Made by a program: the position numbers and the translations under genes
The notes under the pieces: generated by a model
Database searches by the model: none
Told to the model about the DNA's origin: nothing
The model's input: only the letters and a program-made list of their open reading frames with translations
Assembly: GCA_030390025.1 (NCBI GenBank)
Contig: JASTWF010000033.1
Span: forward strand, 6,202,001-6,266,000
Source: Squalus acanthias
Lineage: Eukaryota
DNA: 64,000 nt
Direction: 5' to 3'
In this document: positions 20,867 to 64,000 of the stretch, piece after piece
Layout of the letters: the number at the start of each line of letters is the position of its first letter
How positions within the stretch are numbered: the stretch's first letter is position 1

Positions 20867-20904
<38 letters not shown>

Positions 20905-21104
20905 CAGGGACAGAGGGAGATTGAGAGAGATACAGGGATAGAGGGAGATAGAGAGAGACAGGGACAGAGGGAGATTGAGAGAGAGACAGGGACAGAGGGA
21001 GATTGAGAGAGAGACAGGGATAGAGGGAGATAGAGAGACAGGGACAGACGGAGAGAGAGATAGAGACAGATAGAGAGAGAGAGAGAGAGAGGGAAAGGGG
21101 GAGA

Positions 21105-21138
<34 letters not shown>

Positions 21139-21460
21139 CAGGGACAGAGGGAGTTTGAGAGAGATACAGGGATAGAGGGAGATAGAGAGAGAGACAGGGA
21201 CAGAGGGAGAGTGAGAGAGAGACAGGGACAGAGGGAGATTCAGAGAGAGACAGGGATAGAGGGCGGGAGAGAGAGAGACAGCGAGGGAGATAGAGAGAGA
21301 GACAGGGACAGAGAGAGAGAGAGAGAGGGGGACCGAGGGAGAGAGAGCGAGAGAGAGACTGGGTTAGAGGGCGATTGAGAGAGAGAGACAGGGATAGAGG
21401 GCGATAGAGAGTGAAACAGAGGGAGGGACAGGGAGAGGGGCACACAGCGAGAGAGAGAGG
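18081..21460. repeat. ~3.4-kb polypurine GA-rich low-complexity tract
   Basis: GAGACTGGGGAGAGA-like units in the first ~2.1 kb, then GAGACAGGGA(C/T)AGAGGGAGAT(T/A) units. Confidence 0.95.
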
Positions 21461-37200: not shown

Positions 37201-37540
37201 GTGGGCTGGGGAGGAGTCGAGGATATTAGGTGGGGTGGGGTGGAGCTGAGGATATTAGGTGGGGTGTGGAGGAGCTGGGGATATTAGGTGGGGTGGGGAG
37301 GAGCTGAGGATATTAGGTGGGATGGGGAGGGGCTGAGGATATTAGGTGTGGTGGGGAGGAGCTGAGAATATTTGGTGGAGAGGAGCTGAGGATATTAGGT
37401 GGGGTGGGGAGGAGCTGAGGATATTTGGCGGGGTGGTGAGGAGCTGAGGATATTAGGATGGTGGGGAGGAGCTGAGGATTTTATGTGGGGTGTGGAGGAG
37501 CTGAGGATATTAGGTGTGGTGGGGAGGAGCTGAGGATATT
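25298..37540. repeat. G-rich 29-bp satellite, consensus GAGGAGCTGAGGATATTAGGTGGGGTGGG (roughly 400 units)
   Basis: Direct reading of unit spacing; interrupted once, at 25926-26669. Confidence 0.97.
25926..26669. mobile_element. MITE family B, copy 1 (744 bp, PIF/Harbinger-related), inserted in the satellite
   Basis: Imperfect TIRs GGGCCGAAAATTGATC / GATCAATTTCTGGGCC; 3-bp TSD ATT (25923-25925, 26670-26672); closely similar copy at 51565-52305. Confidence 0.85.
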
Positions 37541-37547
37541 CTAAAAG

Positions 37548-40500
37548 GTTAGATTAGAATCACCACCGGTAATGTTAGGTTAGAATCACCACCAGTAATG
37601 TAGTAGTAGAGTCACCACAAGTACTGTTCGAGTAGAATCACTACCAGTTCTGTTAGATTAGTATCACCAACAGTAACGTTAGATTAGAATCACCAGCAGT
37701 AATATTAGAGTAGAATCACCACTAGTAGTGTTAGATTAGAATCACCACAAGTATTGTTCGAGTAGAATCACCACCAGTAATGTTAGATAAGAATCACCAC
37801 CAGTAATGTTAGATTAGAATCACCAGCAGTAATATTAGAGTAGAATCACCACCAGTCGTGTTAAATTAGAATCACCACCATTATTGTTCGAGTAGAATCA
37901 CCATCAGTAATGTTAGACTAGAATCACCACCAGTAATGTTAGAGTAGAATCACCAACAGTAGTGTTTGAGTAGTGTCAACACCAGGAATGTTAGTGTTGA
38001 ATCACTACCAGTAATGTTAGAGTCGAGTCACCACAAGTAATGAAAAATTAGAATCACCACCAGTAATGTTAGATTAGAATCATTACCAGTAATGTTAGAG
38101 TAGAGTCACCACCAGTAATGTTAGGCTAGAATCAACACCAGTAATGTTAGATTAGAATCACTACCAGTAATGTTAGATTAGAATCACCAACGGTAATGTT
38201 AGATTTGAATCACTACCAGTAATGTTAGAGTAGAGTCATCACCAGTAATGTTATACTAGAATCAATACCAGTAATGTTAGAGTAGAATCACCAGCAATAA
38301 TGTTAAAGTAGAATCACCACCAGTAATGTTAGATTAGAATCATCACCAGTCATGTTAGATTAGAGTCACCACCAGTAATGTTAGAGTAGAGGGACCACCT
38401 CTAATGTCAGAGTAGAATCAACACCAGTAATGTTAGAGTAGAATCACCAACAGTAATGTTAGCTTAGAATCACCACCAGTAATATTAGAGAAGAATCACC
38501 ACCAGTAGTGTTAGATTAGAATCACCACCAGTAATGTAAGAATAGAGTCACCACCAGTAATGTTAAATTAGAATCATCACCAGTAATGTTAGATTAAAAT
38601 CAGCACCAGTAATGTTAGAGAACAATCACCACCAGTAACATGAGAGTAGCATCAGCACCAGAAATGTTAGTTTAGCATCACCACCGGTATTGTTAGATTA
38701 GTATCAACACCAGTCATGTTAGATTAGAGTCACTACCAGTAATGTCAGAGTAGAATCACCACCAGTAATGTTAGAGTATAATCACCACCAGTAATGTCAA
38801 ATTAGAATCAACACCAGTAATGTTAGAGTAGAGTCACCACCAGTAATGTTAATTTAGAATCACCACCATTAATATTAGAGTATATTCACCACAAGTAATG
38901 TTAGATTAGAATCACCACCACTAATGTCAGAGTAGAATCACCACCAGTAATGTTAGAGTAGAATCACCAACAGTAATGTCAGATTAGAATCACCAGCAGT
39001 AATATTAGAGTAGAATCACCACCAGTAGTGTTAGATTACAATCACCACCAGTATTGTTCGAGTAGAATCACCTCCAGTAATGTTAGGTAAGAATCAACCC
39101 CATTAATGTTAGGTTAGAATCACCACCAGTAATGTTAGATTAGAATCACCACCAGTAATGTTAGAGTAGAATCAAAACCAGTAGTGTTAGATTAGAATCA
39201 CCACCAGAAATGTTAGATAAGAATCACCACCAGTAATGTTAGATTAGTGACACCACCAGTGATGTTAGAGTTGAGTCCCCACTAGTAATGTTAGAGTAGA
39301 ATCATCACCAGTAATGTTAAATTAGAATCACCACCAGAAATGTTCGAGCAGAATCACCACCAGTAATGTAAGAGTAGAATCACCACCAGTAAAGTTAGAG
39401 TAGAGTCACCACCAGTAATGTTAGAGTAGAATCAACACCATTAATGTTAGAGTAGAATCACCATCAGTAATGTTAGAGTATAATCACCACCAGTAATGTT
39501 AGAGTAGAATCACCACCAGTAATGTTAGAGTAGAATCACCACCAGTAATGTTAGTGTAGAGTCACCACCAGTAATGTTAGAGTAGAGTCACCACCAGTAA
39601 TATTATACTAGAATCACCACCAGTAATGTTAGAGTAGAATCACCACCAGTAATGTTAGATTATAATCACCACCAGTAATTTTAGAGTAGAATCAACACCA
39701 GTAATGTTAGAGTAGAATCACCACCAGTAATGTTAGATTATAATCACCTGCAGTAATGTAAGAATAGAGCCACCACAAGTAATGTTAGATTAGAATCACC
39801 TCCAGTGAGGTTAGATTAGAATCACCACCAGTAATGTTAGATTAGAATCACCACCAGTAATGTAGTAGTAGAGTCACCACAAGTACTGTTCGAGTAGAAT
39901 CAATACCAGTTCTGTTAGATTAGTATCACCAACAGTAATGTTAGATTAGAATCATTACCAGTAATGTTAGAGTCGAGTCACCACAAGTAATGAAAATTAG
40001 AATCACCACCAGTAATGTTAGATTAGAGTCACCACCAATACTGTTAGATTAGAATCACCACCAGTAATGTTAGATTACAATCACCACCAGTAATTTTAGA
40101 GTAGAATCAACACCAGTAATGTTAGAGTAGAATCACCACCAGTAATGTTAGATTATAATCACCTGCAGTAATGTAAGAATAGAGCCACCACAAGTAATGT
40201 TAGACTAGAATCACCTCCAGTGAGGTTAGATTAGAATCACCACCAGTAATGTTCGAGTAGAATCACTACCAGTTCTGTTAGATTAGAATCACCAGCAGTA
40301 ATATTAGAGTAGAATCACCACCAGTAGTGTTAGATTAGAATCACCAAAAGTATTGTTCGAGTAGAATCACCACCAGTAATATTATACTAGAATCACCACC
40401 AGTAATGTGAGAGTAGAATCACCACCAGTAAAGTTAGATTAGACTCACCACAAGTAATGTTAGCTTAGAATAATTACCAGTAATGTTAGATTAGAGTCAC

Positions 40501-43500
40501 GACAGTAATGATAGAGTAGAATCACAACCAGAAATGTTAGTTTAGAATCACCACCAGTAATGTTATTTTGGATCACGACCAGTACTGTTCGAGTAGAATC
40601 ACCACCAGTCATGTTAGATTAGAATCACTACCAGTAATGTTCGTATAGAGTGACCACCAGCAATGTCAGAGTAGAATCACCACCAGTAATGTTAGAGTAA
40701 AATCACCACCAGTACTGTTAGATTAGAATCACCACCAGTAATATTAGAGTAGAATCACCACCAGTAATGTTAGATAAGAATCAACACCAGTAATGTTAGA
40801 TTAGAATCACCACCAGTAATGTTAGATTAGAATCACCAACAGTAATGTTAGATTACAATCACCACCAGTAATTTTAGAGTAGAATCAACACCAGTAATGT
40901 TAGAGTAGAATCACCACCAGTAATGTTAGATTATAATCACCTGCAGTAATGTAAGAATAGAGCCACCACAAGTAATGTTAGACTAGAATCACCTCCAGTG
41001 AGGTTAGATTAGAATCACCACCAGTAATGTTAGATTAGAATCACCACCAGTAATGTAGTAGTAGAGTCACCACAAGTACTGTTCGAGTAGAATCACTACC
41101 AGTTCTGTTAGATTAGAATCACCAGCAGTAATATTAGAGTAGAATCACCACCAGTAGTGTTAGATTAGAATCACCAAAAGTATTGTTCGAGTAGAATCAC
41201 CACCAGTAATGTTAGATAAGAATCACCACCAGTAATGTTAGATTAGAATCACCAGCAGTAATATTAGAGTTGAATCACCACCAGTAGTGTTAGATTAGAA
41301 TCACCACCAGTATTGTTCGAGTAGAATCACCATCAGTAATGTTAGACTGGAATCACCTCCAGTAATGTTAGAGTAGAGTCAACACCAATAATGTTAGATT
41401 AGAATCACCACCAGAAATGTTAGAGTAGAATCACCACCAGTAATGTTATATAAGAATCACCACCAGTAATGTTAGCGTAGAATCACGACCAGTAATATGA
41501 GAGTAGAATCACCACCATTAACATTAGAGTAGCATCACCACCAGTTATGTTAGATTAGAATCACCACCAGTAATGTTAGATTAGAATCAGCACCAGTAAT
41601 GTAAGATTATAATCACCACCAGTAATGTTAGATTAGAATCACCACCAGTAATGTTAGAGTAGAATCACTACCAGTAGTGTTAGATTAGAGTCACCACCAG
41701 TAATGTTAGATTAGAATCAACACCAGTAATGTAGAAGTAGAGTCGCCACAAGTAATGTTAGAGTAGAATCACTACCAGTAATGTTAGAGTAGAATCACCA
41801 ACAGTAATGTTTAATTAAAATCACCACCAGTAATGTTAGAGTAGAGTCACCAGCAGTAATGTTAGAGTAGAGTCAACACTAGTAATGTTAGAGTAGAATC
41901 AACACCAGTAATGTTAGAGTATGGCCTCCACAAGTAATGTTAGAATAGGATCGCAAACTTTAACGTGAGATTAGAGTTACCACCAGTAATATTAGATTAG
42001 GGTCACCACCAGCAATGTTAGAATAGTGTCGCCACCATTAATCCGAGATTTGAGTCAACAGCAGTAATGTTAGATTAGAATCAACACCAGTAATGTTAGA
42101 TTAGAATCACCACCAGTAATGTTAGATTTGTGTCACCACCAGTAATGTTAGAGTTCAGTCCCCACCAGTAATGTTAGAGTAGAATCATCACCAGTGATTT
42201 TAAATTAGGGTCACCACCATTTATGTTAAACTAGAATCACCACCAGTAATGTTAGATTAGAATCAATACCAGTAATGTTAGTGTAGACTCACCACCAGTA
42301 ATGTTAGATTAGAATCACTACTAGTAATATTACAGTAGAATCAACACAAGTAATGTTAGATAAGAATCACCACCAGTAATGTTAGAGTAGAATCAACACC
42401 AGTAATGTTAGAGTATAATCACCACCAGTAATGTTAGATTATAATCACCAGCAGTAATGTAAGAATAGAGCCACCACAAGTAATGTTAGAGTAGAATCAC
42501 CACCAGTGATGTTAGATTAGAATCATCACCAGTAATGTTAGATTAGAATCACCACCAGAAATGTAGTAGTAGAGTCACCACAAGTAATGTTCGAGTAGAA
42601 TCACTACCAGTTATGTTAGATTAGAATCACCAGCAGTAATGTTAGATTAGAATCACCACCAGTAATGTAAGAGTAGAGTCACCAGAAGTAATGTTAGATT
42701 AGAATCACCACCAGTAATGTTAGATTAGAGTCACCTCCTGTGATGTTAGAGTAGAGTCACCACCAGTAATGTTAGAGTTGAATCAACACTAGTAATGTTG
42801 GAGTAGATTTAACACCAGCAATGTTAGTGTAGGGTAACCACAAGTAATATTAGAATAGGATCGCAACCATTAATATGAGATTAGAGTCACCACCAGTAAT
42901 GTTAGATTAGAATCACCACCAGTAATGTTAGATTAGAATCACCACCAGTAATTTTAGATTAGTGTCACTGCCAGTAGTGTTAGAGTAGAGTCACCACCAG
43001 TCATGTTAGATTAGAGTCACCACCATTCATGTTAGAGTAGAGTCGCCACCAGTAATGTTAGAGTAGAATCAGCACCAGTAATGTTAAAGTAGAATCGCCA
43101 CCAGTAATGTTAGAGTAGAGTCACCACCAGTAATGTTAGAGTAGAGTCAACACCAGTAATCGTCGAATAGAATCACCGCCAGTAATCTTAGAGTAGAGTC
43201 AACACCAGTAAAGTTAGAGTAGAGTCACCATCAGTAATGTTAGAGTAGGGATACCAACTGTAATGTTAGAGTTGAGTCAACACCAGTAATGTTAGAGTAG
43301 AGTCCCCATCAGTAATGTTAGAGTTGAGTCACCTCCAGTAATGTTAGAGTAGAGTCACCACCAGTAATGTTATAGAAGCAGCACCACCAGTAATTGTAGA
43401 GTAGGGTCATCGCCTGTAATATTAGAGTAGGGCCCTCATCAGTAATGTTAGAGTAGAGTTACCACCATTTATGTTAGATTAGGATCACCACCAGCAATGT

Positions 43501-44140
43501 TGGCGTAGAGTCACCGCCAGTTATATTAAAGTAGGGTCACCACCAGTAATGTTGGAGTAGAGTCACCACCGGCAATGTTAGAGTGTGGTCACCGCAGTAT
43601 TGTTAGAACAGGGTCACCACCAGTAATGTTATAGTAGAGTCACCATCAATAATGTTAGCATAGAGTCACCACCAGTAATGTTAGAGTAGGGTCACCACCA
43701 CTAATGTTAGAGTGGAATCACTACCAGTAATGTTAGAATAAAGTAACCACGAGTAATGTTAGAGTAGAGTCACCACCAGTAATTTTAGAATAGCGTCACC
43801 ATCAGTAATGTTATAGTAGAATCACCACCAGTAATGTTAGAGTAGAATCACCACCGCTAAAGTTAGATGAAAGTCACCACCAGTAATGTTAGATTAGAAT
43901 CACCACCAGCATCGTTAGAGTAGAGTCACCGCCAGTAATGTTAGAGTATGGTCACCACCAGCAATTTTGGAGTAGAGTCACCACCAGTAATGTTATAAAT
44001 GTGTCACCACCAGTAATGTTAGAGTAGAGTCACCACCAGTAATATTAGAGTAGTTTCACCACCATTAATGTTAGAGTAGGGTCACCACCAGTAATTATAG
44101 TGCAGGATGACCAGCATAATGTTAGATTGGGCCCTCACCA
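37548..44140. repeat. 26-bp satellite, consensus AGAATCACCACCAGTAATGTTAGA(T/G)T (roughly 250 units)
   Basis: Direct reading; abuts the 29-bp satellite and decays towards about 44.2 kb. Confidence 0.97.
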
Positions 44141-45405: not shown

Positions 45406-45866
45406 ATGCATGAATATAGTGTCAGTGGCGATAGCGATGGAGATTCAGCCGGAAGAGAAGGATCATGGTCGGCTGAGCCGAGGTCGCCCGTATCACACTA
45501 TCGCCCAAAGTCAACATTCCCTTCCGTTGAGCCATCAGTGCCTGGCTGTCGGTGGTGTTGGGGTCGCTATCCGATACCATTGCCGATACTGAATACGAGC
45601 GACCCTCCCAGCACCAACCTCCACCCACCGGCTTGACACAGTCTGACTGAAGTGTGCTGGAATGCAGGTGCATTCTCACTACCTCGATATTGGGTTTTTC
45701 ATGAATATTTTCGTTTGAAAAGGTATATTGTCAATGCTTGCTTATATTATAAAGAGAAACCGTGTGCATAACCCTCAGTAGGAACACATCGGTTCATCTC
45801 CCCACAATACGCTGTAAGATTTATCCGAGTGTCCCCATTACTTACTCTTGTCCCTCTTTCTTACAG

Positions 45867-46773
45867 CGAACATATTAACAATGGTGATTCTCTCCAGAGG
45901 AAAATGTGGTCTTTCCAAATGTATCTCGGTCTACATGGTGGCCATGGCAACAGCAGATCTACTGGTCATGATCGTCAATGTAATTGTATATCATATTTTG
46001 AGTAAACGCTTCCCATATTCATTCCTGTCCTACACTGCCGTTTGTAAGTTCATGGTGTACATGAGTTGTGTCAACCTGGATATGTCGGTGTGGTTTACCG
46101 TCTCCTTCACATTTGACCGATTTGTAGCTATATGTTGTCAGAAGTTTAAAACAAAGTATTGCACAGTGAGAACTGCGGCCTCGGTTATAACAACGGTCTC
46201 TGTCCTGAGCTATTTAGAGAACATACCCTTTTGGTTTGCCTTTGAACAGAAACAAATAATCAACAATGTTCCCTGGGGTTTCGTCCCGAGTATGGCCTTT
46301 CATACATCGCCTGCAGGTGTAGCCTACAACCGCTTAGAAAGTGTTTTAATTGCATATATTCCTTTTGTTTTAATATTACTTTTTAATTGTTTGACAGTCA
46401 GACGTATTTTAGAGGCAAGCAGAGCCCGCAGGGGACTCCGGGGTCACAGCGGTGAGAATCAGAGCGATCCAGAGATGGAGAGCCGAAGGAAATCCATCAT
46501 TTTACTTTTCACTGTATCGGCCAGTTTTTTATTGTTGTGGCTGACAGCTGCCGTGAATTCTGTAGTTAAGAACCTGGTGGTTTTTCACCGACCCGATTAT
46601 ACATCCCTGCATACATCGCCACTGAAACCGGATATATGCTCGTGTATTTGAGTTCCTGTACAAACACGTGTATTTATGCAGCTACACAAACTAAATTCAG
46701 GGAAGAGCTGAAGAAGGTGGTGAACTCTCCTTGGACATTGATTCTGATGTTGATTAAAAAAATGAAAAATTAA
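45867..46773 (+). pseudogene. Coding exon 2 of the GPR139-like GPCR (TM1-TM7); 1-nt frameshift near 46605
   Basis: Polypyrimidine-TTACAG acceptor; ANILTMVILSRGKCGLSKC, MATADL and FTFDRFVAIC; TM7 and helix 8 (YLSSCTNTCIYAATQTKFREEL...*) lie in a shifted frame ending at TAA 46771-46773. Confidence 0.85.
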
Positions 46774-49766: not shown

Positions 49767-52686
49767 GACTCATAGATTAATCGAGTCATTACGGCACAGA
49801 AGGAGACCATTCGGTCCATCGAGTCCATGTCGTCTGTCTGTAGACCAATCCAGTCAGTCCCATTCCCCCGCTCTATCCCCGTAGCCCTGCAAGTTTATTT
49901 CCCACAAGTGCCTGTCCAGTCTCCCCTTTAAAACATTGAGTGTCTCCGCTTCCAGCACGTCCGACCGCAGCGAATTCCAAGTCAGCAACACTCACTGTGT
50001 AAAAATGTTTTTCCTCACATCTCCCCTGTATCTCCTGCCCAAAACCTTAAATTTGTATCCCCTATGTCCTTGTACCATCAAGTAGTAGGAACAGTATTTC
50101 CCCGTCTAGCCTATCCAAACCCGTCATAACCTTGTACACCTCTATCAAATCACACGTCAACCTCCTTTTCTCTAATGAAAACAAATCCAGCTTCTTCAAC
50201 CTGTACTTGTAGCTAAGATTCCCCCATCCCCGGAACCATTCTGGTAAATCTCCTCTGCCCCATCTCAAGGGCCTTCACATCTTTCCGAAAGTGTGGTGAC
50301 CAGAACTGGATGCAATACTCCAGTTGTGAGTTGTGGCCTAACCAGCGCTTTATAAATGTTCAGCATAACGTCTCTAATTTTGTACTCAATACCGCTATTT
50401 ATGAAGCCCAAGATCGCATATGCTTTGTTAACGGCTCTCTCAATATATTCTGCCACCTTCAGGGACCTATGCACATTAACTCCCAGGTCCCTCTGTCCCT
50501 GCACACTCTTTAAAACTGTGCCATTAAGTTTATATTGCCTCTCCCTGTTCCTTCTGCCAAAATGCATCACCTCACACTTCTCTTTGTTAAATTCCATCTG
50601 CCAATTGTCTGCTAGCCTTTCTATGTCCTGTTGCAGCCAATTGATATCATCATCACTGTTTGCCACACACCCAAGTTTGGTGTCATCAGCAAATTTAGAA
50701 ATTCTACTCTGTATTCCAATATCCAGGTCGTATCAAAAAAGCATTGGCCCCAGAACTGATCCTTGCAGAACACCACTGTCTACCATCCTCCAGTCTGAAA
50801 AACGGCCATTTACCACAACTCGCTGTTTTCTGTCCTTAAGCCAATTCCTTATCCAAGCTGCAACTGACCCACCTATTCCATGAGCCTTAATTTTGTTAAG
50901 CAGCCTTCTATGTGGTACTTTGTCAAACGCCTTCCGAAAATCCATGTAGACAGCATCCATTGTGTTCCCTTCTTCAATCCTCTTTGTTACTTCATCAAAA
51001 AATTCAATTAAATTATTCAAACACGATCTGCCTTTTAAAAATCCGTGTTGGCTCTCCTTAATTAGCTTAAAGCTCTCCAAATGCCCGTTAATTTTTTCCT
51101 TGATTATTGTTTTCAAACTTTACCCACCACTGATGTTAAACTGACCGGCCTGTAGTTACTAGGATTGTCCTTACGCCCTTTCTTGAACAATGGTGTCAAA
51201 TTTGCCACTTTCCAATCCTCAGGCACCTCCCCCGCATCTAGGGAAGATTGGAAAATTATGGCAAGCCCGCCGCCATCTCCTCCTCCATTTTCCATAGCAA
51301 CCTGGGATGGATGCCATCTGGACCAGACGCCTTGTCCACTCTAAGTATACCCAGCCTTTCTCGTACATCCTGTCTATCTATTTTCACCCCTTCCATTGCT
51401 TCAACCTTTTCCACTTCTACCGATATTTTATCAGCATCCACCTCCTTAGTAAACACCGATACAAAGTACTCATTTGGTATTCTAGCCTTGCCCTGCCCCT
51501 CTAAGCATATATCAACTTCTTTGTCACTAATAGGATCCACCCCGCCTCTTACTAACTGCATAATGGGCCAAAAATTGATGCCGCTACGCGAGAGTACGCA
51601 CTGTGTACTCTCGCGTATTCTCTCTCCAATTGCCGGTTTTCTGCATGCACTGCGCATGCGCTGAAAACCGGCACTTGGTTTTTGGAAAAGGGGGCGGTTC
51701 CTCGGTGCACCGCGTGCGCGCTACAGGCTGCGCGCACGCTGTGCACTTCATGCTTTGGACGCGCAGGTAAGGACGGAGGATTTTAGAAATGAAAAAAGGA
51801 GGAGTAAGACCCACTTTTAACAAGGTAAGTAGTGAATTAAGTATTATTTTGAATTTTTTTTAACAGGTATATGTTTTTTAGAGACTTTAAAGACAGGTAA
51901 GTTTATTTTTATAACTTTTTAAAAGATTTTCAATTTTTTCAAAAAATTAATTTTTTATTTAAAATGGTTAATTTATTTAACTATACTTATTTTATTAATG
52001 TGATGTTTTTTTTTAATTTAATTGAGGTTTAGCTGTTATTTTGGGGGTGTGTAAGATTCATAGCTTTCACAGCACGTATGTGAAACTTATGAATGGAAGA
52101 TGGTGTGCTGCCATTGGCTCGAACTGAGTCACGTAATCCCACAGCTCGCACGAATTCACTACGCCGGTGGGATACGCAAGCACTGCCCAGCTGATGTCTA
52201 GAACATCAAGTTCGTGCGAGCTGGATCTGAAAAAGCCAACGCGGAGTGAGAGATCGCGCCTACTCCTTACCCCCGCGGGAACAGAGCGAGATCAATTTCT
52301 GGGCCAATGTCTTTATGCCGGTAGAAGATTTTTGGGTTCCCTGTTATGTTAACCGCCATTCTACTCTCATATTCTCTCTTTGCCAATTTTAGTTTCCTCT
52401 TCACATCCCCTCTCAACTTATTGTATTTGGTCTGGTTCTCCCTTGAAGAATTCACCTGACATGCAACACACACACTCTTTTTTTGTTTCATCATCTTCTC
52501 TATCTCCCTTGACATCCAAGGAGCCCTTGCTTTGGTTCGCTTGCCCTTCCCTCTTGTTGGAATGTACCTAGCCTGTACTTGGAGCATCTCCTCCTTAAAG
52601 ATCACCCATTGTTCCGTTACAGTTTTTCCTGTCAGTCTTTGGATCCGTTTTCCCCTGGCTAGATCGTTTCGCATCCCATTGAAGTT
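49767..52686 (-). mobile_element. 5'-truncated CR1 LINE containing MITE B copy 2
   Basis: ORFs 52267-52674, 51256-, 50733-51116, 50265-50666 and 50062-50268; CR1 3' tail near 49770-49830. Confidence 0.85.
51565..52305. mobile_element. MITE family B, copy 2 (741 bp)
   Basis: Same TIRs and body as 25926-26669; TSD AAT (51562-51564, 52306-52308). Confidence 0.88.
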
Positions 52687-53920
52687 AAACTGCTCATTAA
52701 GCCGCCTATCTTTGTATCTTCGTCAAAAATAGACATGTGGCTCTCAATCCCATCAACTAATTCGTTAATAAAAACGGTGAATAGTCGAGGCCCCAAAATA
52801 GATCCCTCAGAGACACCACTAGTCATATCCTGCCAATTAAAGTCGCTGTCCATTATCCGCACACTATGTCTCCTGTCGCTCAAACAATTTCCTATCCAGG
52901 ACAATAATTTGCCTTCACTTCCACGAGCTTCAACTTTACCTAACATCTTCTTACGTGGGACTTTATAAAATGTCTTTTGCTCCATGTCTATTAACTGATA
53001 ATGATTTGTGAACTGGGACTCACAATCCTCTTTGCTCCTCAACAGTTAATGGCTTCCTATTATTTAGTCTATCCATCACAGGTTCAAAATTAACAATTAA
53101 CCCAGTATGAACTGCTGTTTGTGGGGGTGAGTTACAGATTTCTACCACCCATTACATGTAGAAGTGTTTCCTAACTTCACTCCTGAAAGGCTTGGATCTA
53201 ATATTTAGGCTAAGTCAACTAATCCTATACTTGTGAATTATCGGAAATATCTTCTCTCTATCTAACCTATCAGTTCCCATTAATATCATGAATACTTCAA
53301 TCAAATCACTCCTTAAGCTTCTAATATCCAGAGAACACAATCCTAGTTTGTGTAATCTCTGCTCATAATTTAACACTTGGCCTCTATGTATCATTCTGGT
53401 AAATCTACTCTTCACTCTTTAAGTCTGATACTTCCTTCCTAATGTGTGATGCGCAGAAATGAACACAGTCCTCCAGGTCTGGTCTAACCAGTGTTTTGTA
53501 TAGGTGCAGCAGAACTTCTCCCCCTTATATTGTAGTCCTAAATATATAAATAACACCATTCAATTAGTCCTTTTGATCTTTTCTGTACCTGTCCATGACA
53601 ATTGAATGATATATGTACATGGACCCTTCAGTCTCATTGGACACCCACTGGTTCCAGCTTTTCACCATTTAGAAACTGTTCTGATCTCTCCATTTTAGGT
53701 CCGAAGTGGATGACCACACACTTGCTTATATTTAAATCAATTTGCCATAGATTTCACCAATCACTTAATCTATTAAGATCTCTTCTAATTTCATGGTTCC
53801 ATCTAAACTGCTTAAATGCCGCCTATCATTGTGTCATCGTCAAACTTGGATATGTGGCTCTCAATCCCATCAATAATGTCGTTAATAAAAGCGGCGATTA
53901 GTTGAGGCCCAAAATAGATC
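52687..53920 (-). mobile_element. Two adjacent old CR1-type RT fragments (52687-52975 and about 53110-53920)
   Basis: GVSEGSILGPRLF...FDED; SRFTRMI...LIEVF; SKFDDDT. The second fragment is cut at 53920. Confidence 0.7.
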
Positions 53921-54575
53921 TGTCCTGGTAAACTTGACTGGATCTCTATTTGACTAAATCTAAAAGCTTTGAGGGCAAGAGACTGCTTGACTAAAAACAT
54001 TTGCAAAACTTCTAATGAGCTGGTACATTTCCTTCAGAAGATAAGATCTTGAAAATTATGTGAGAACCTCAACAACCCTGCAGATGTGAAAAACAATGAC
54101 TCTCTCCAGTTCTTGGAGTCTTGCCTTGGTGAACTGAGCCTTAAAACAGATAGAGAGAGAGAAAGAGAAGAAAACAACATTCCCCACAGTTTGGGACATG
54201 AATGCTGGGGGCCAGTTGCCCAGTTTTGTGTTATAACTGTTATTGGACACTGTGATTCGGGACTATAATCGATGGTGACGTGGTCAGGTGCCAGTTACAG
54301 TTAGTCATACGTCTGTCATCGTTGAATTGACCTCCCATCTGGTGAATAGTATGTATGTGGTTTTACTTATAATCACCTGAGCTTAAAGTCACTGATTTTA
54401 GGTGCTTGCTTGTGATAAGTGCATGAATTGAGTACATTTTGTATTCTGGGAATTACTGGTAACCTCTTTTTGATTTTTAAGTAAACGAAGTTTCACAGAT
54501 TCATTGGGTTTTGTGTTGTCTGTTCCTCGAGTCTCAACTCTATAAACTCTCAGAGAATCAAAACGCATTAATGAT
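53921..54575 (+). repeat. Putative 5' LTR (~650 bp)
   Basis: Begins TGT exactly where the host LINE homology (AAAATAGATC|) stops and ends just before the PBS. No second LTR is available to confirm the boundaries. Confidence 0.55.
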
Positions 54576-54577
54576 TC

Positions 54578-54595
54578 TGGCGCCCGAACAGAGAC
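54578..54595 (+). promoter_or_regulatory. Primer binding site, tRNA-Lys(UUU)/Lys3 type
   Basis: TGGCGCCCGAACAGAGAC, 17/18 identical to the canonical Lys3 PBS TGGCGCCCGAACAGGGAC. Confidence 0.9.
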
Positions 54596-54622
54596 TCGTT
54601 CGGAACAAACAATGGCAAAACA

Positions 54623-56295
54623 ATGGATGAGTTAGTCAGGAAATATGTGAGAGCGAAGTTACGCCTCAGGGAGTCGTGGGTACGGGGCATTATTGATGGT
54701 GCTGACACAGTGGCTGAGGCTGAACAGCGGACCCAAGGGTCCACCTGCCGGCCAGGGATGGTAAAGGCCGTCTGGTTCATGGCAGACCAGAGGCAGTTTA
54801 AGAATGATGTGTGTAAAATGGCTCAGATGCATAAGGAGATGGAAGAGATGGTAAAGGATGTCAGTGATAAGGAAGCGGTTGTAAACCGGCTTCGACGGGA
54901 ATTAGAGGATGAAAGAGAAAGTAAGAAAAGGCTGAGGGGTCAGTTGGAAAAGGTAAAGGAGATTTGGTGTAATGAAGGGCAGTACCTTGAGAGCCACTGT
55001 ATAAATAATCAGAATCAGTGTGATGTTTGGTCAGAGGAGCCGGCCAACCAGAGAGATCGGGCAGAACGAGCAGAGAAAGCTAATGATGATCTGAAGGCTG
55101 CATTCAGGGTCACTCAGAGACAGGGTCTGGAGGACCGGAGTGCTGCCGGGGATCACACTGAATGTAAGGAATTGATTAGGGAGCTGGAGGAAAAGTTGAA
55201 GGTCCAGAGGGGTCTTGTGTGGGCCAGGACTCCTGTGATTGGAGGAGATTAGCAGGATAGCAAAGGGTTTGATAAAAATCACCCGGATGGGGGCCCACAA
55301 CCTGGAAATAGCCCACCGGAGGGAGTCAGACCCCCACCTATGGCCCCGATGTGACACAAACGGTGCCAGTACACCGGCCGTGCGGGCGGGTGAAGGAGCG
55401 TTGGGGGTGCTAGAGAGGGAGTTTGTGGTCCCGTATAATACTGGGGAGTTAAGGGAAATGTTCAGTGATTTGAACAAGCTGGTAATGGGAGGAGACCCCC
55501 AAGGGCATTATCTGGAGGGAGAACAGAGGGCCGCTTTAAATGACCTGGTTGAGGAGGTAAAGAAGCGCTTGCTGCTATTTACCCTGAGCTCCAGTGTCTT
55601 TGCTGGACTTCCACCAGAGAATAAGAGGGGAGAGGGCACTTACGATGCGCTAAAGTTGCGGGTTGTCCAGGTGTTGGGACAGGGTAAAGGGGATCCTTTT
55701 AAGGCGGTGGCGGACGTGGATCAAGGCCCAAACGAAGACCCGGCAGCTTTTGCTGACAGGTTATGGCCGACCTATAATGCAGCCATGGGAGGGGCGGTAA
55801 GGAGAGCAGACCTAGACGGAGAAGCGCGGAACCATTGGTTGCGGACACTGATCTCCCACAGTCTGCCCTATTTACAAGCTGCAATGGCGGACTTTGACCC
55901 AGAAGATATCAACAAAACTGAGGTCAGGGTGCTGCGGAAATTGACCCTGCGTTTCGAGGCGCGCCAGGTAGATAAAAAGCAAGGTAATAAGCAAGTCAAA
56001 AGGCAAGGTCTGTGAAATGAAGGGGGCAGGGGCATCCCGGAAGTGGCAACAAGAGGGGATTCAGGGAAAGAAGTGCTCTGCCTGTGGGATGGTGGGACAT
56101 TATGCACGGAACTGTAAAAGATCACTTAAGACAGACATGGTTGAGGCTGCCCCACGAGAGGCCGAATCTCAGCCCAGCGCCCCCAGTTATGAGGATTTCA
56201 TTAGATATGTAGCTAAGCAGATGAAGGAGCTTGAACCATCTCAAGGAAAGGTCCACGCAGCCCATGGGAAGGATCGCGGGGAGACCCGAGCATGA
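54623..56295 (+). pseudogene. gag: gag (coiled-coil N-terminus, capsid with MHR, CCHC nucleocapsid, PSAP motif), frameshifted
   Basis: VDQGPNEDPAAFADRL (MHR-like), CSACGMVGHYARNC and QPSAPSY; spread over ORFs 54623-55252, 55239-56015 and 56017-56295. Confidence 0.85.
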
Positions 56296-56391
56296 CGGGG
56301 AAGCGCCCAGCCCGAGTACCTGTGTCCACTCAGGTACGAAAATGAGAAGTCGCACAACACCAGGTTATAGTCCAACAGATTTATTTAAAAT

Positions 56392-56427
56392 TACAAGTTT
56401 TCGGAGCTGTCGCCCCTTCCTCAGGTA
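56392..56427 (-). ncRNA. Minimal hammerhead ribozyme motif in the Penelope 3' pLTR
   Basis: UAC-CUGAGGA-A-GGGGC(GACA)GCUCC-GAA-AACU-U-GUA; stem III is one base away from palindromic AGCU. Confidence 0.65.
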
Positions 56428-56672
56428 GAGTTACTGTGAGACAATCTACCAGAATTCACAGAATATAAATACAGAGAAAATGCAGAGTTTCAATCTTTCC
56501 CTACATCAAAGACACACTAAGAGCACAGCCAATACAATGAGATGTGTCCCAGGGGGTCCAACGTGTCAAAACACCTGCTGGCTGCATATCCTCTCCATTT
56601 GGGTTTGTTTCTTGTGTTTGTTTCTTGTGTTTGTTTTTTAAAAAAGCTGGAAAGACCGGCAACGATGTCAAG

Positions 56673-57725
56673 TCACGTTATGTAGCGTGACATGAACCCG
56701 ATATCCCGATTGAGGCCGTCCTCATGAGTGCGATACTTGGCTATCAGTTTCTGCTCGATGATTTTGCGTTGTCGTGTATCCCGAAGGCCGCCTTGGAGAA
56801 CGCTAACCCGCAGATCCGAGGCTGAATGCCCTTGACTGCTGAAGTGTTCCCCGACTGGGAGGCAACCCTCCTGCCTGGCGATTGTTGCGTGGTGTCCGTT
56901 CATACGTTGTCTCAGTGTCTGCATGGTCTCGCCGATGTACCATGCTCTGGGGCATCCTTTACTGCAACTTATCAGGTAGACAACGTTGGCCGAGTCACAT
57001 GAGTATGTACCATGTACCTGGTGGGTAGTGTCCTCACGTGTGATGATGGTATCTGTGTCCATGATCTGGCATGTCTTGCAGAGGTTGCCGTGGCAGGGTT
57101 GTGTGGTGTCATGGTCGCTGTTCTCCTGAAAGCTGGGTAATTTGCTGCGAACGATGGTACTTTTGAGGTTAGGCGGCTGCTTGAAGGCGAGTAGTGGAGG
57201 CGTGGGGATGGCCTTAGCAAGGTGTTCGTCGTCATCGATGACATGTTGAAGGCTGCGAAGAACATGGCGTAGTTTCTCCGCTCCGGGGAAGTACTGGACG
57301 ACGTAGGGTACTCTGTTGGTTTTGTCCCGTGTTCGTCTTCTGAGGAGGTCTATGCGGTTTTTCGCTGAGGCCCGTCGGAACTGTCGATCGACGAGTCGAG
57401 AGTCATATCCCGTTCTTACGAGGGCGTCTTTCAGTGTCCGTAGGTGTCCATCGCGTTCCTCCTCGTCTGAGCAGATCCTGTGTATTCGCAGGGCTTGTCC
57501 ATAGGGGATGGCTTCTTTAACGTGGTTAGGGTGGAAGCTGGAGAAGTGGAGCATCGTGAGGTTGTCCGTGGGCTTGCGGTAGAGTGAAGTGCTGAGGCGT
57601 CCGTCTTTGATGGAGATTCGTGTGTCCAAGAATGAAACCGATTCTGAGGAGTAGTCCATGGTGAGTTTGATGGTGGGATGGAACCTGTTGATGCTATCGT
57701 GTAGTCCTTTCAGTGATCCTTCGCC
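56673..57725 (-). CDS. Penelope ORF C-terminal part: RT thumb, Cys-rich linker, GIY-YIG endonuclease (open frame, no native start)
   Basis: SFLDTRI, LYRKPT, SSFHP, PCHGNLCKTC...C, NVVYLISC...YIGET...QRMNGH, VGEHF, EQKLI...GLN. Confidence 0.85.
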   Translation of the reverse strand, partial: GEGSLKGLHDSINRFHPTIKLTMDYSSESVSFLDTRISIKDGRLSTSLYRKPTDNLTMLHFSSFHPNHVKEAIPYGQALRIHRICSDEEERDGHLRTLKDALVRTGYDSRLVDRQFRRASAKNRIDLLRRRTRDKTNRVPYVVQYFPGAEKLRHVLRSLQHVIDDDEHLAKAIPTPPLLAFKQPPNLKSTIVRSKLPSFQENSDHDTTQPCHGNLCKTCQIMDTDTIITREDTTHQVHGTYSCDSANVVYLISCSKGCPRAWYIGETMQTLRQRMNGHHATIARQEGCLPVGEHFSSQGHSASDLRVSVLQGGLRDTRQRKIIEQKLIAKYRTHEDGLNRDIGFMSRYIT

Positions 57726-60700
57726 GTGATCCTTCTCCACATCATGACCACTCAGGTACGGTGATTGGGGAAGACCGTGTGTAGACATCCTGAGTGAGGG
57801 CGAGAGAGGGGACTATCTGGTAGACACTGGAGCGTCAAGCAGGGTAGATCCACTCTCCCTCCCCGATGTCGACTCCCTGGTCAAGTGGCGCCCCCTATGT
57901 TTTAGGAGGTTTCACGGGTAACTCAGCAGCTGGGGCGGTCTCAGAACCTATAATCTTCAGAGTCGGACCCCTGCAAACAAAGTGGAGATGTTTACGAATG
58001 AAATGGGATCAGCCAGGAATGGGAGTGCTGGGCTCTGACTGGATGTTGGCTCACAATGTGACAGTGGATATGGATAATAACTGTTTGTGGGGCGGAGTGG
58101 ACTGTGGTGAAGCAGTAATCGTTATACCCCCGAGAAATGGAGAAGCGTGGGTGGTAACACATGCGGGACCCGATGACTGAGAAACACTAACGGCCAGGGT
58201 GCCCGAGAGGAATCAAACCGCAGTGCAGAATGTCAAGGGAGCTTGTGCTACCCACAGACATGATTGTGGAAGGGTGACAGAGTAGAGGTGGGTGTGGGAG
58301 GTGAGCCAATGTCCCGGCCCCAGAAACAGTGCACGTTCCCCAAGGAAGCAGAGAGAGAGACTGAGAAAAAGCTGTTCCGTCCTTAGTAGAACAAGGGACC
58401 CTGAGACCTATTGTGACGCATGTTAACTCTCCTGTTTGGTCATGAATGAAGACAGACAATTCCTGGCGGATGGTTGTAGATTACAGAGTCTTGAATAAAA
58501 CCATCCCTGCTTGTGCTCCCACAGGAGCAGCTGCGATTGCTTTAATCGGCAACATTCCCAGCTCTGTCCCTGTGTTCCCAGTACTGGACATATCTAATGG
58601 ATTCTGGTCAACTCCCTCACACCCGGAGGACCAGTTTGCTTTTACCTTTAAAGTTCAGCAGTATGCGTGGACTTGTTTGCCACAGGGGTTCCACAATAGC
58701 CCGTCTATTGTCCACCAGTGTATGGCTAACAGCCTATCAGAATTCAGTCAGCCCGGCCAGCTTGTGCAGGCTGTAGATGATTTACTGCTGTTCTCAGATA
58801 GCGAAGAGGAACATGAGGAACTACTGCAGGAATTGTTAGAATTGCTTGCAGCCGTAGGTTTAAAGGTAAACCCCAAGGAGGCACAGATAGGGCAAAGAGA
58901 GGTTCAGTTTCTTAGACTGTCTATTCTACCAGGGGAGCGCGCGATAGACGAAGCAGAGCGCAAAACTGTCCAGGAATTGCACGGCCCGGGTTCAATAGCT
59001 GCTCTCAGATCATTCCTGGGTCTGACAGGGTACTGTAGAGAATTTATTGAGTATTAGGCAGCGACGGCAGCTCCTTTGCTGAGATTACTCAGAAAGGGAG
59101 TGGTATGGGATTACGATGAGCGCTGTGAGGAAGCTTTTGTAAAGTTGAAAAAGGACCTACAAACAGCCCCAGCATTGGGAGCTGGAGACCCTAAGAAGGA
59201 CTTCTTTTTGGAAGCAGCGGCAACAGACGCCAGTCTGAGTGTTGTTTTAATGCAGGAAGTGAATGGGCGTCTGAGACCAGTTGCTCATGTCTCCAAAGTG
59301 CTATCTGAGCTGGAGAAGGGATACTCTACCTGTGAGCGGCACTTGCTGGCCACATTCTGGGCAGAGAAGCATTTTGCCATATTCCCGGGGACCCAGCCTA
59401 TCACTCTCCTTACCCACCACACGCCAACCCGCCTCCTGTTAGAAGGCCGGATTAAGCAGGGAAACGTGTCAAGTACTCGGGTAGCTACATGGACCCTACA
59501 GTTAGAAGGGATGAACCTGAAAGTGAAACCAATAAAGGATCCGAAATTAGCACCCAGCCTTATATATATGGGGGCCCCCACACTTGTACAGTCGAGGGGG
59601 TGTGGGAAGCAGAAGGCGGATTCAAACCTGGTATCCACCCTGAAGGGACAGACATATATGTGGATGGGTCTAGTTTTGTGGAAAAGGGGGAACGTAAAAC
59701 AGGATGTGGAATTTACGACCCACAGAAAGGAATGGAAGTGACGATTAAGTTACCCACCAGTCTCAGTGCTCAGCAGGCCGAGTTAGCAGCCGGAACTTAT
59801 GTGGTAACACATCCCACCGATTTCCCCCGCCCTATACGATCTGCTCTGACTCTATGTTTACATATAATTCTTACACAGAATATTTGGCGATTTAGGCTAG
59901 AAGAGGTTTTAAATCAGCAGATGGCAAGTCACTGGTTACCGCTCCAATGTTGGCAACCATAGCGGAAGTCATAAGAAGAGGAGGCGAGGATTACTATATC
60001 CATAAGGTCAAAGCCCACTCTAAAGCAGAACCCAGATGGGAGGGAAATAGGAAAGCAGACGAGCTTGCTAAGGTGGGAGCGGACAGAGGGGTCCCGTGGG
60101 ACCCGTTTCAATCGGGAGTGGGAGCAGCCATCACTCCGGCTATTACTATTCCGCTTCCCCCGGATATCAAAACAATACAGCTGACAGATGTGGCGCTAAA
60201 ATCTGTCCTCAAGGAAAGAGAAGCAGGTCAGATTGTAGAAGGGCCTTATGGGGCCAAAGATGTAAACGCCAGGGAAGGTATGTTGTTCAAAGGAGAGAAG
60301 TGGATTGTGCCCGAGGGATACAGGGAGGAATTCATGCAGCTAGCTCACGGGGGACCGGGGTCTGGACACCCCGGACCCGAAACAATCTGTAAGCTTGGCG
60401 AGGAGGTAGGGTGGTGGCCTCATCTGAGGAAAGACATAGAAGATTAGTGTAAAACCTGTTTAGTGTGTGCTGCTAACAATCCTGAGCCACATAAAAGAAA
60501 GGCTCCCCTCGGACACCCGCGTCGACCAGAGGGACCGTGGCAGTGTGTCCAGATAGATTTTATCGGACCCCTGCCCAACACTAAGAAGGACAATAAATAT
60601 TGTCTAGTCCAAGAGGAGAATTTTACCAAGTGGGTCGAAGCTTTCCCATGCAAGGCAGACACAGCATTGTGGACGGCCAAGACCCTAGTTAGGGAGGTAT

Positions 60701-61621
60701 TTTCTAGATTGGGGCTCCCTCGATTGGTAGAGTCCGACCAAGGGAGTTATTTTACAGGGCAAGTGATGCAAGCCACCCTGAAATTGTTTGCAATTGAAGG
60801 GAAATAGCACGTAACCCCCAACCCGCGGTCATCAGGGATTGTGGAAAGAATGAACCGCACGTTGAAGTTGGCCCTGTGAAAGGAATTAAACAAACAGCAA
60901 ACTAAGTGGGATGAGGTACTTCCCCAAATCCTTATGGGGATACACAGTAACAAATCCAAAGGAGCGGGTCACTCCCCTCATGAATTGGTAACAGGGAGAC
61001 CCATGCGAACCCCCACACACCTGTTGACCCCCACTCTGATAAACAAATGAAATAAGTCACTCGGGACAAATTCCTGAGTGACCTGTGGGGAACTTTAAAG
61101 GAACTAAACTTGAGAGCCGCCCACAACATTGGGAAGACACCCCAACGCAACAGATTACACCTGACTCCGAGTAAACCCCAGGAGTGGGAACTAGAGAGCC
61201 AGGTAATGGTATGAAACTATGCGAGGGTGGGAGTTTTCGAACCCCTCTACAAGGGACCGTATAACATTGTTGACAAAGCTTGTCCTCTGGTATACGCGGT
61301 TCAGTTACCTAAGAAAATCAAATGGTTTCACATTAACCAGATGAAGCTTTTTCAGCCCACAAGCAGGTCAGGAAGACAGCAGGCCACGATCATGAGCATG
61401 GTGAGACTGACTCAGCCGCTCCAATGGGATGATGAAGAAGGGGGCCTAATGCAGCGCTCCCACCTGAGGCACCTTCGTGTGACGAGCTGCCTCCCCAGGT
61501 ACAGGATGGTGGTTACAATCTGAGGCAAGGACCTCGGAAACGGCCAAGGCGGTCCAGTGAATAGTCAGTGCAGAGCCTAAAAGACCAATGGTGAGAAGAA
61601 GGGAGGCGGGACTGGGAGTAA

Positions 61622-61649
61622 CTCTCCGCTTTGTTCCCCTCTTCCACAG
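61622..61649 (+). promoter_or_regulatory. Candidate splice acceptor for a subgenomic (env-like) mRNA
   Basis: CTCTCCGCTTTGTTCCCCTCTTCCACAG|G just after the integrase, 20 nt before an ATG in good context (GAAATGG, 61669). Confidence 0.6.
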
Positions 61650-61668
61650 GCCAGAACAAGGCAGAGAA

Positions 61669-62562
61669 ATGGGGAGGATATTTTGGTTGCTGTGTGACAC
61701 AGCGCTCCATCTCGAAAGGGCAGCAGGAACTCATGGGGAAGCATCCAGCGATTCAAGTTAGGACAGTCAGATTACCATTGCCCAGTAACTCCGCCCCAAG
61801 GTATCGCTCGGGAGGTTGCCCTCCGATCTATCAAGGGTATGTGCGACACACGTTGTTCAGGAATAGTCCGGGTAACCACATACACGGTCCAAGAAGGGAG
61901 GGGAATATGTATAAAGTGTAAGAGTGGGACAGTGAATCAGCCGCGTGTATGGTTCATTCAGGCAAAGGTGGGTGACAATACTAGCTACCGCCAGATAGGA
62001 GACCCTTGGGGATAGAATGGGAGAACAACTCAATCGGAAGTCCATGGGGAAACCATGTTGTGTTGGCCACGGTGGGGGCGGGAGCCTGAGGGTATATATG
62101 GATGTGTAAACCCTCGACCAGGCCTACTGAAGAATTAGGTCAATCTTGGGTCCGAATTCCCGGTTTGCAGCCTTTCTCCTGCGTTTGTGTCCGGTGCAGA
62201 AAATGCCCCCCCCCTTATCAATGGATGCTGGGTGAAAAGGAGGGAGGGCTGGGCCATGAAATGTGTGTTACTGATCATGTATCGGAATGTGAAAACCGAA
62301 CCATAGATACCAGAGAATTCAAATTGAAAGTCCGTTCTAAATTCCACCCACCCCCCGCAAATAAAACACAATCGCGGGAAGAACAAGAAGAAACCCGGGT
62401 TGTCTCCCAAACACACTCCGGGGCAGACAAATGGGTTAGTGGTAGTCCCAACTCGGGTATTATACCATGATGTGCCTCACAAGTTGGTGCCTGTGATATT
62501 AAATCTGACCGAGGTGGGAATACCGGACTGGTGCAACCCAGAAACAGCGCGATTATATGGGA
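61669..62562 (+). pseudogene. Putative env/surface glycoprotein N-terminal part (signal peptide, Ig-like domain, Cys-rich segment); decayed and cut by CR1
   Basis: MGRIFWLLC...AAG; VQEGRGICIKC-x10-W...LCWPRWGREPEGIYGC; RTRR in one frame near 62380; GLVVVPTRVLYHDVPHKLVPVILNLT...WC. Confidence 0.5.
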
Positions 62563-64000
62563 GTCATAGAGTCATAGAGTTATAAAGCACAGAAAGAGGT
62601 CCTTCGGCCCATCGTATCTGCGCCGGCCATCAAGCCCTATCTATTCTAATCCCATTTTCCTGCACTTGGTCCGTAGCCTTGTATGCTATGGCGTTTCAAG
62701 TGTTCATCTAAATGCTTCTTGAATGTTGTGAGGGTTCCTGCCTCTACCACCCTTTCAGGCAGTGAGTTCCAGATTCCAACCAAACTCTGGGTGAAAAAGT
62801 TTTTCCTCAAATCCCCTCTAAACCTGCTGCCCCTTACCTTGAAACTATGCCCCCTGGTTATTGAGCCCTCTACTAAGGGGAACAGTTCCTTTCTATCTAC
62901 CCTATCTATGCCCCTCATAATTTTGTACACCTCAATCAGGTCCCCCCCTCAGCCTTCTCTGCTCGAAGGAAACCAACCCCAGCCTGTCCAGTCTATCTTC
63001 ATAGCTGAAACGCTCCAGCCCAGGTAACACCCTGGTGAATCTCCTCTGCACCCTCTCTAATGTAATCACATCCTTCCTATAGTGTGGCGACCAGAACTGC
63101 ACACAATATTCCAGTTGTGGCCTAACTAGCGTTTTGCACAGCTCCATCATAACCTCCCTGCTCTTATATTCTATGCCTCGGCTAATGAAGGCAAGTATCC
63201 CATATGCCTTCTTAACTAACTTATCTACCTGTCTTGCTGCCTTCAGGGATCTATATACATGCACACCAAAGTCCCTCTGATCCTCTGTCCTTCCTAGGGT
63301 CCTACCATTCATTGTTTATTCCCTTGCCTTGATAGTCCTCCCAAAATGCATCACCTCACACTTTTCAGGGTTAAATTCCATTTGCCACTGTTGTGCCCAT
63401 CTGACCAACCCGTCTATATGGTCCTGTAGCCTAAGGCTTCCCTCCTCGCTATTTACCACTCCACCAATTTTCGTGTCCTCTGCGAACTTTCTGATCATAC
63501 CTCCTACATTCATATCTAAATCATTAATGCACACTACAAACAGCAAGGGACCCAGCACCGATCCCTGCGGTACACCACTGGACACATGCTTCCAGTCACA
63601 AAAACAACCTTCGACCATCACCCTCTGCCTCCTGCTACTAACCCAATTTTGGATCCAATGTGCCAAATTGGCCTGGATCACATAGGCTCTTACCTTCTTG
63701 ACAAGTCTCCCATACCGGACATTGTCAAAAGCCTTACAGAAGTCCATGTAGACCACATCAACTGTACTACCCTCATCCACACACCTAGTCACCTCCTCGA
63801 AAAATTCAATCAAATTGGTTAGACATGATCTCCCCCTGGCAAAGCCATGATGACTATCATTGATTAATCCTTGCCTCTCCAAGTGGAGAGTAATTCTGTC
63901 CCTCAGAATGTTTTCCAATAATTTCCCTACCACTGATGTTAGGCTCACTGGCCTGTAATTCCCTGCTTTATCCCGACTACCCTTCTTGAATAATGGTACT
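62563..64000 (-). mobile_element. CR1 LINE 3' part, running off the window; interrupts the env-like region
   Basis: ORFs 63316-63948 (QGSVLGP, FAED), 62932-63312 and 62646-62930; tail GAGTCATAGAGTCATAGAG at 62563. Confidence 0.9.

Follow-up and report, generated by a model that had tools for sequence, protein, structure and literature searches.

In-frame stop codons between gag and pro are known for gamma- and epsilonretroviruses and for the snakehead retrovirus (SnRV), according to the readthrough-site section of PMC13517186. The same section lists UGA at the gag-pro junction of SSSV (UGAAGA), ZFERV (UGACGA) and a Rhinella toad endogenous retrovirus (ERV; UGAAGU), and gives no stimulatory structure for these three. 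Outside retroviruses, the type II readthrough signals of alphaviruses, coltivirus and Virgaviridae combine UGA-CGG with a spacer of 8-9 nt and a stem whose 3' arm is distant (PMC3159437); UGACGG of VEEV and CTFV is read through at less than 1% without the downstream stem (PMC13517186). Here we analyse the gag-pro junction of a decayed SnRV-like provirus in 64,000 nucleotides of Squalus acanthias DNA (contig JASTWF010000033.1, positions 6,202,001 to 6,266,000; this whole stretch is called the window, and positions are those of the window). In this element a UGA followed by CGG is very probably the natural end of gag, Pol being made by readthrough of it. Readthrough at an in-frame gag-pro stop is thus already known from other fish retroviruses; what this locus possibly adds is a long-range stem.

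In the window copy, the TGA at 56293-56295 ends a 107-amino-acid frame (55972-56295) that carries the zinc knuckle, and the next codon is CGG, which confirms the hexamer of the original prediction. Fourteen codons after this stop, pro is interrupted by a Penelope-type insertion flanked by an exact target-site duplication (TSD). The two TSD copies are offset by 1422 nt, that is 0 modulo 3, and the D-T-G of the protease (57823-57831) shares the frame class of the TGA and lies 36 codons beyond it, counted on coordinates with the insert discounted; both bear out the claim of the original prediction that protease lies in the frame of gag behind a single UGA. The two sides of the insert were translated separately, and neither an in-frame stop nor an ATG appears on either side between the TGA and the catalytic D-T-G; no slippery heptamer was found at the junction. 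TGACGG occurs once among the 156 TGA strings of the scanned stretch. A same-frame coincidence alone would arise in 1 case out of 3, so that the evidential weight must come from related copies: a single copy proves little by itself.

Such copies were found in contigs from four of 19 runs (X2, X6, X12 and X14) representing four species, aligned to 56030-56380 at 80% likeness; 40 of the 103 variant rows and 32 contig pieces are listed. Paralogues with a sense codon in place of the stop, the case that the original prediction held against itself, did not appear: no variant row falls at 56293-95 among the 40 of 103 listed. At five substitutions private to the window copy (56060, 56089, 56126, 56136 and 56302) another letter makes up at least 96% in every run. 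Since the private changes behave in this way in all runs and none is listed at 56293-95, the TGA is, as judged from these alignments, not private to the window copy. It is bridged by at least 31 nt on both sides in 8 of the 32 contig pieces listed, and none of the 12 indel rows falls in 56288-56338. Thirty-six contigs (13, 5, 15 and 3 by run) pass the TSD into letters matching 57762-57791 ungapped, at 25-27 of 30 positions by eye, therefore insert-free copies exist. In three contigs an unalignable, open, proline-rich upstream stretch joins the same TGA (by eye), so that other gag ends share the stop.

The expected conservation of TGA-CGG thus held for the TGA, common to contigs of four species; the first base of the CGG (+4) is C or A among them. 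By depth, A reaches 506/1920 in X2 (26%), 15/110 in X6 (13%), 7952/9347 in X12 (85%) and 104/165 in X14 (63%): C is commoner in X2 and X6 and A in X12 and X14, where a 42-nt tandem repeat inflates A and the gag-linked copies are not separable. This repeat was seen in X12 and X14 contigs that return from 56334/56335 to 56303, 9-10 letters intervening, and define a unit of 42 nt (14 codons, 56293-56334) that begins at the gag stop. In X12 the depth is about 40,000 at 56306-56329, as against 250-700 across gag. From these contigs, the readthrough site seems to have given rise, in some species, to a minisatellite or a derived element.

Several points nevertheless count against the junction as we read it. 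The lowest variant share listed is about 35%, and variants outside the 40 rows are presumably rarer than this; a minority sense codon at the TGA may thus exist. At the local variant rate, finding no row at three given sites has a probability of 0.66; the contigs therefore rule out a private mutation and do not demonstrate selection on the stop. The +4 base, as just said, varies. In the window copy gag lies in three frames, pol has further stops and shifts, and "in frame with gag" is true only for the last (nucleocapsid) piece of gag.

Intact relatives help to locate the end of gag. A library search with the capsid piece matched 16 proteins, the named Gag relatives belonging to Scyliorhinus torazame and Heterodontus francisci, which fits a cartilaginous-fish host. 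All three gag pieces of the window copy match the intact Gags P0022 (619 aa) and P0023 (628 aa), the two best capsid matches, with 23-40% identity. These two, and P0038 (653 aa, a cluster member), end 64-68 residues past the knuckle with no fused protease, compared with 59 residues in the window copy, and the alignment of P0022 reaches within about 5 codons of the TGA. Two other matches, P0029, a repeat protein, and P0031 (4695 aa), which hits the same short stretch, look spurious. A word-index search with the capsid piece gave no match to longer proteins, which is weak evidence.

On the Pol side, P0001 is an intact Pol of 1145 aa with 67% identity to the element in the reverse transcriptase (RT); pol as a whole is 54-65% identical to it, with several stops and shifts, and the protease of the window copy aligns to it in two frames. 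A search with the protease region of P0001 returned only P0001. In a quick-search RT tree (midpoint root, 49 of 63 RT rows kept after duplicate removal, matches below 150 aligned residues excluded) the element pairs with P0001 (support 95) inside a group of frog, coelacanth and turtle Pols. This group is sister to L049, together a 17-row clade (SH-aLRT 95) apart from the gamma- and epsilon-type rows; RT identity is 41% to L049 and 31-37% to gamma-type loci. That the tree was built without lokiretroviral, foamy-viral or ERV-L sequences weighs against this placement. L049 is a genome of 10,688 nt with gag (625 aa), TAG-GGC and pol (1398 aa) in frame and 32 codons from the stop to the catalytic Asp; its hexamer is the one given for SnRV (UAG-GGC) in PMC13517186. 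The protease piece 57760-57918 of the window is identical to the L049 protease at 14 of 31 positions (E 4e-6). The element is, on this RT phylogeny, a member of the SnRV-like clade and not of the gamma/epsilon viruses. The analogy with the latter drawn in the original prediction holds for the logic of the in-frame stop, and the closest comparison becomes the snakehead retrovirus and its endogenous clade.

A further member is the elephant-shark CmiERV scaffold 2, placed in lineage I with SnRV by PMC4422223. By eye, this scaffold has an open knuckle frame followed by TGA CAT and, 44 codons on, D-S-G; the likeness of its lineage to the window RT was also seen by eye. Database proteins of frogs, coelacanth and turtle labelled "NYNRIN-like" or "Gypsy integrase-like" (P0002-P0009 and P0017) are Pols of the SnRV-like clade, several being called from a Met inside the protease. 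A Pol-profile search of metagenome and viral contigs gave 48 gamma/epsilon-type loci, one SnRV-type locus and no close relative with the junction. The exact 18-nt junction pattern matched once, on a phage-like contig (L050) with no relation to the element, and we regard this match as chance.

Altogether an in-frame UGA between nucleocapsid and protease is common to related copies, with no AUG or slippery heptamer at the junction. The shared stop, the UGA-C of CmiERV (by eye) and the ends of intact Gags support the original proposal that Pol was made by UGA suppression, readthrough itself being what we infer from them. On unspliced RNA most ribosomes would stop at the UGA and yield Gag, while a few per cent would decode it with a near-cognate tRNA and proceed to Gag-Pro-Pol. 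According to PMC13517186, the residue inserted is usually Arg, Cys or Trp, and viral readthrough runs at 2-15%. There was no hint of selenocysteine recoding of the UGA, no search aimed at it being made. Readthrough might be stimulated by an element of alphavirus type, in which UGA-C is followed, after a spacer of 8 nt, by a stem with its 3' arm in the protease coding region about 190 nt further on.

The candidate for such a stem came from folding the flanks of the insert as two strands: a duplex of about 19 bp between 56304-56325 and 57913-57937, at -28.4 kcal/mol. None of 87 other pol/env stretches gave as good a duplex, and shuffling did so in 14 of 1000 trials for the partner and 27 of 1000 for the strand. 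A single strand among 2037 overlapping ones elsewhere in the element was as good as the 5' arm (one in 330 among those GC-rich). Among 11 start points swept, +12 gave the best pairing, and in the two-strand fold the core pairs of the stem reach probabilities of 0.8-0.99, displacing a local 7-bp hairpin that shares the 5' strand. None of the variant rows listed falls at 56303-56338, against an expectation of 5.1 from the upstream rate, but both the tandem repeat and constraint on the protein confound this comparison.

Against the stem stands first that it is one of six strand/range combinations tried, so that the p-values are modest after six tries; the other five were unremarkable, with 7-44 of 87-88 stretches as good. 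Its span of 211 nt is longer than those of VEEV (126) and SINV (177) in Table 1 of PMC13517186, and it is predicted from a decayed copy. In a test of pairing at fixed geometry L049 was not significant (202/300), and the gammaretroviral control L009 itself gave only 12/300. The pairing predicted by these folds is thus suggestive only, and the chance that it stimulates readthrough seems to us a little short of even.

We give similar credit to readthrough being real and driven by the codon context or by the local hairpin, the long-range stem having arisen by chance. Besides the modest p-values, it speaks for this that no other perfect 7-bp hairpin occurs in the 1761 nt of the gag side. On the other hand, the long-range helix beats the hairpin in the two-strand fold and has its best start at +12, and the UGACGG of VEEV and CTFV, as cited above, does little without its stem. 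Local folds at the junction are not significant (z -1.2 to -1.8), pairing of 56296-56315 with 57760-57790 is at chance (222/500), and a compact pseudoknot was not found at the window junction. Rfam gave no match up to E 1 in 53500-64000, and ARAGORN no match. A hairpin at 57749-57797 was set aside, related contigs differing in its 3' arm.

Among relatives, the local fold of L049 has a stem from +12 (z -1.2 over 90 nt and -2.3 over 130 nt). In CmiERV an 8-bp complement starts near +10 with its partner about 60 nt on (by eye); we take both as leads only. In a divergent retroviral locus (L040:716-805) a long hairpin directly follows the gag UAG, with z -2.2 over 90 nt and -3.0 over 130 nt.

Two explanations that deny readthrough survive poorly. 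Pol could be made without it, by a spliced RNA, its own start codon in foamy-virus style, reinitiation or frameshifting, and gene callers do start P0001, P0005, P0006, P0008 and P0009 at a Met just before D-T-G. However, these starts fall inside the protease domain (the Pfam match begins at profile position 12), no in-frame ATG lies between the stop and the catalytic Asp, there is no slippery heptamer, and a protease in the same frame needs no shift; we consider this very improbable. Equally hard to credit is an old, non-leaky stop, fixed in a defective Gag-only founder that was spread by the Pol of another virus. The copies in the four runs could all come from a single clade, and sharing shows descent, not function; against this, unalignable gag ends reach the same stop, a distant holocephalan relative (CmiERV, by eye) has UGA at the equivalent junction, and P0001, so close in RT, is an intact Pol.

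Least credible of all, and by the alignments largely refuted, is a private nonsense change by CpG decay of a CGA in a once continuous, lokiretrovirus-like gag-pol frame. In its favour, the copy is decayed, with a CpG observed/expected ratio of 0.51-0.57 and several more stops in frame; the annotations of Loki-Str and Loki-Xtr each give a single smc-gag-pol gene (PMC7947760); and the gene model P0007, which may skip a stop, runs from capsid into protease without one. Such a change, however, would give about 100% of another letter in all runs, as the five other sites do, and none is listed at 56293-95. The intact relatives of Gag end close to this position, where L049 and CmiERV (by eye) also carry a stop.

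Readthrough of a natural gag stop thus retained, the element compares with described systems as follows. With SnRV and SnRV-like ERVs, its sisters in the RT tree, it shares a gag and pro in frame behind one stop and 32-44 codons to the catalytic Asp; it differs from SnRV by the stop and its context, UGA-CGG/AGG in the window family and UGA-CAU in CmiERV (by eye) instead of UAG-GGC. L049, of SnRV type, resembles it by a stem from +12, but has no Env match to the window element. In SSSV, ZFERV and the Rhinella ERV, too, an in-frame UGA separates gag from pro, and readthrough is presumed to yield their Pol, but they are described as distantly related to epsilonretroviruses and so belong to a different clade (PMC13517186). 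The type II signals share UGA-CGG, the 8-9 nt spacer, a stem of at least 11-12 bp and the distant 3' arm (PMC3159437); unlike them, the window element is a retrovirus, its span is 211 nt against 126-177, its +4 base varies and its stem is predicted only.

MoMLV, a gammaretrovirus with UAG-G and an H-type pseudoknot, likewise sets the Gag:Pol ratio by one in-frame stop with a structure from +12, but it has another codon and context and lies in another clade of the RT tree, and no counterpart of its compact pseudoknot was found at the window junction. With its UGA-C codon and no Rfam match, the window does not carry this type III signal. Lokiretroviruses have in common with the element a dual RNase H, an N-terminal coiled coil and, on its relatives, automatic NYNRIN-like labels, but Loki-Str and Loki-Xtr have single smc-gag-pol frames and the RT snippet of Loki-Lch differs by eye; PMC7947760 reports lokiretrovirus in 0 of 3 Orectolobiformes genomes. 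The lokiretrovirus label was dropped because of the shared stop splitting gag from pro, of this snippet, and of the RT tree with L049. We found no paper that describes, for SnRV-like or shark ERVs, either a 3' stem or readthrough of a UGA, most subscription papers lying outside the search; supplements of genome-mining studies, e.g. PMC10435555, may already annotate such junctions.

The decayed provirus spans 54578-62560 of the window, as deduced from the list of open reading frames (ORFs), Pfam hmmscan and sequence comparison. It opens on an 18-mer that resembles what we take to be a tRNA-Lys3 primer site. The order gag (with CCHC), protease, RT, tether, RNase H and integrase is present, as expected of Retroviridae. 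The three gag frames are 54575-55252, 55239-56015 and 55972-56295, and gag has a TAG at 55250. The env-like region has no match to the L049 Env and no convincing Pfam hit, two env fragments giving no hmmscan hit for PF00523, the paramyxovirus F type to be expected of a lokiretroviral Env, and a second long terminal repeat copy was not found within the window. The window copy itself is dead.

The Penelope-type insert encodes a protein resembling clusters of PF26215 HTH_animal/GIY-YIG (0.95, ESM Atlas features), which fits Penelope; hmmscan of this protein gave no Pfam family. Its CpG observed/expected ratio, 0.86, exceeds that of the provirus and is for this reason consistent with a Penelope that entered after the provirus. 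Contig depth becomes very high from about 56340 in the related-contig alignment. The target site 56321-56333 resembles, by eye, the reverse complement of the letters preceding the same Penelope end in other contigs, and a microhomology-guided insertion is possible on this likeness.

Table. Features of the provirus and of its gag-pro junction in the window
Feature	Position	Strand	Basis or remark
Primer-binding-site-like 18-mer	54578..54595	+	sequence
gag, decayed	54575..56295	+	coiled-coil, capsid, nucleocapsid in three frames
CCHC zinc knuckle	56068..56118	+	Pfam zf-CCHC E 0.0012, just below Pfam cut-off
gag stop TGA + CGG, putative readthrough site	56293..56298	+	sequence
Candidate 5' arm of long-range stem	56304..56324	+	starts +12, 8-nt spacer after stop
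Alternative local 7-bp hairpin	56316..56337	+	shares 5' strand with long-range stem
Target-site duplication, left, 13 nt	56326..56338	+	longest exact repeat flanking insert
Penelope-type insertion, 5'-truncated, 1409 nt	56339..57747	-	ORF, ESM Atlas clusters
Target-site duplication, right, 13 nt	57748..57760	+	longest exact repeat flanking insert
Aspartic protease	57761..58276	+	D-T-G at 57823-57831; frame break soon after motif
Candidate 3' arm of long-range stem	57913..57936	+	+199 to +222, insert not counted; in protease coding region
pol: RT, tether (RT_RNaseH), second RNase H, integrase	58359..61350	+	Pfam
env-like remnant	61600..62560	+	position only; LINE fragment cuts it near 62560

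The provirus is flanked by ORF2 fragments of long interspersed elements (LINEs), presumably of CR1/L2 type, at 50265-53045 and 62560-64000, the right one cutting the env-like region. Elsewhere the window contains two adjacent satellites, one strongly G-skewed at 26679-37540 (29-nt unit, about 376 copies) and one at 37548-44126 (26-nt unit, about 253 copies), with a smaller 29-nt array at 25299-25925 and a long AG-rich, purine-skewed repeat tract at 18079-21459. A single-exon ORF of 277 aa at 45818-46651 (+) looks to us like a class A G-protein-coupled receptor.

We propose, tentatively, that in SnRV-like retroviruses of cartilaginous fishes the Gag:Pol ratio is set by a type II element consisting of UGA-C, a spacer of 8 nt and a long-range stem, and would rather bet against this than for it. 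If true, it would mean that a retroviral lineage uses a type II element in place of the gammaretroviral UAG pseudoknot, and that a single clade has changed its stop between UAG and UGA with the structure keeping its position at +12. As many natural copies occur in several species, the identity of the stop, the +4 base and the covariation of the stem can be compared across copies. Without the stem, the locus would only add another UGA to the known gag-pro junctions. Were the long-range stem confirmed, the type II design of alphaviruses and plant viruses would extend to retroviruses, and readthrough, rather than frameshifting or splicing, would be shown to be the rule in the SnRV-like branch.

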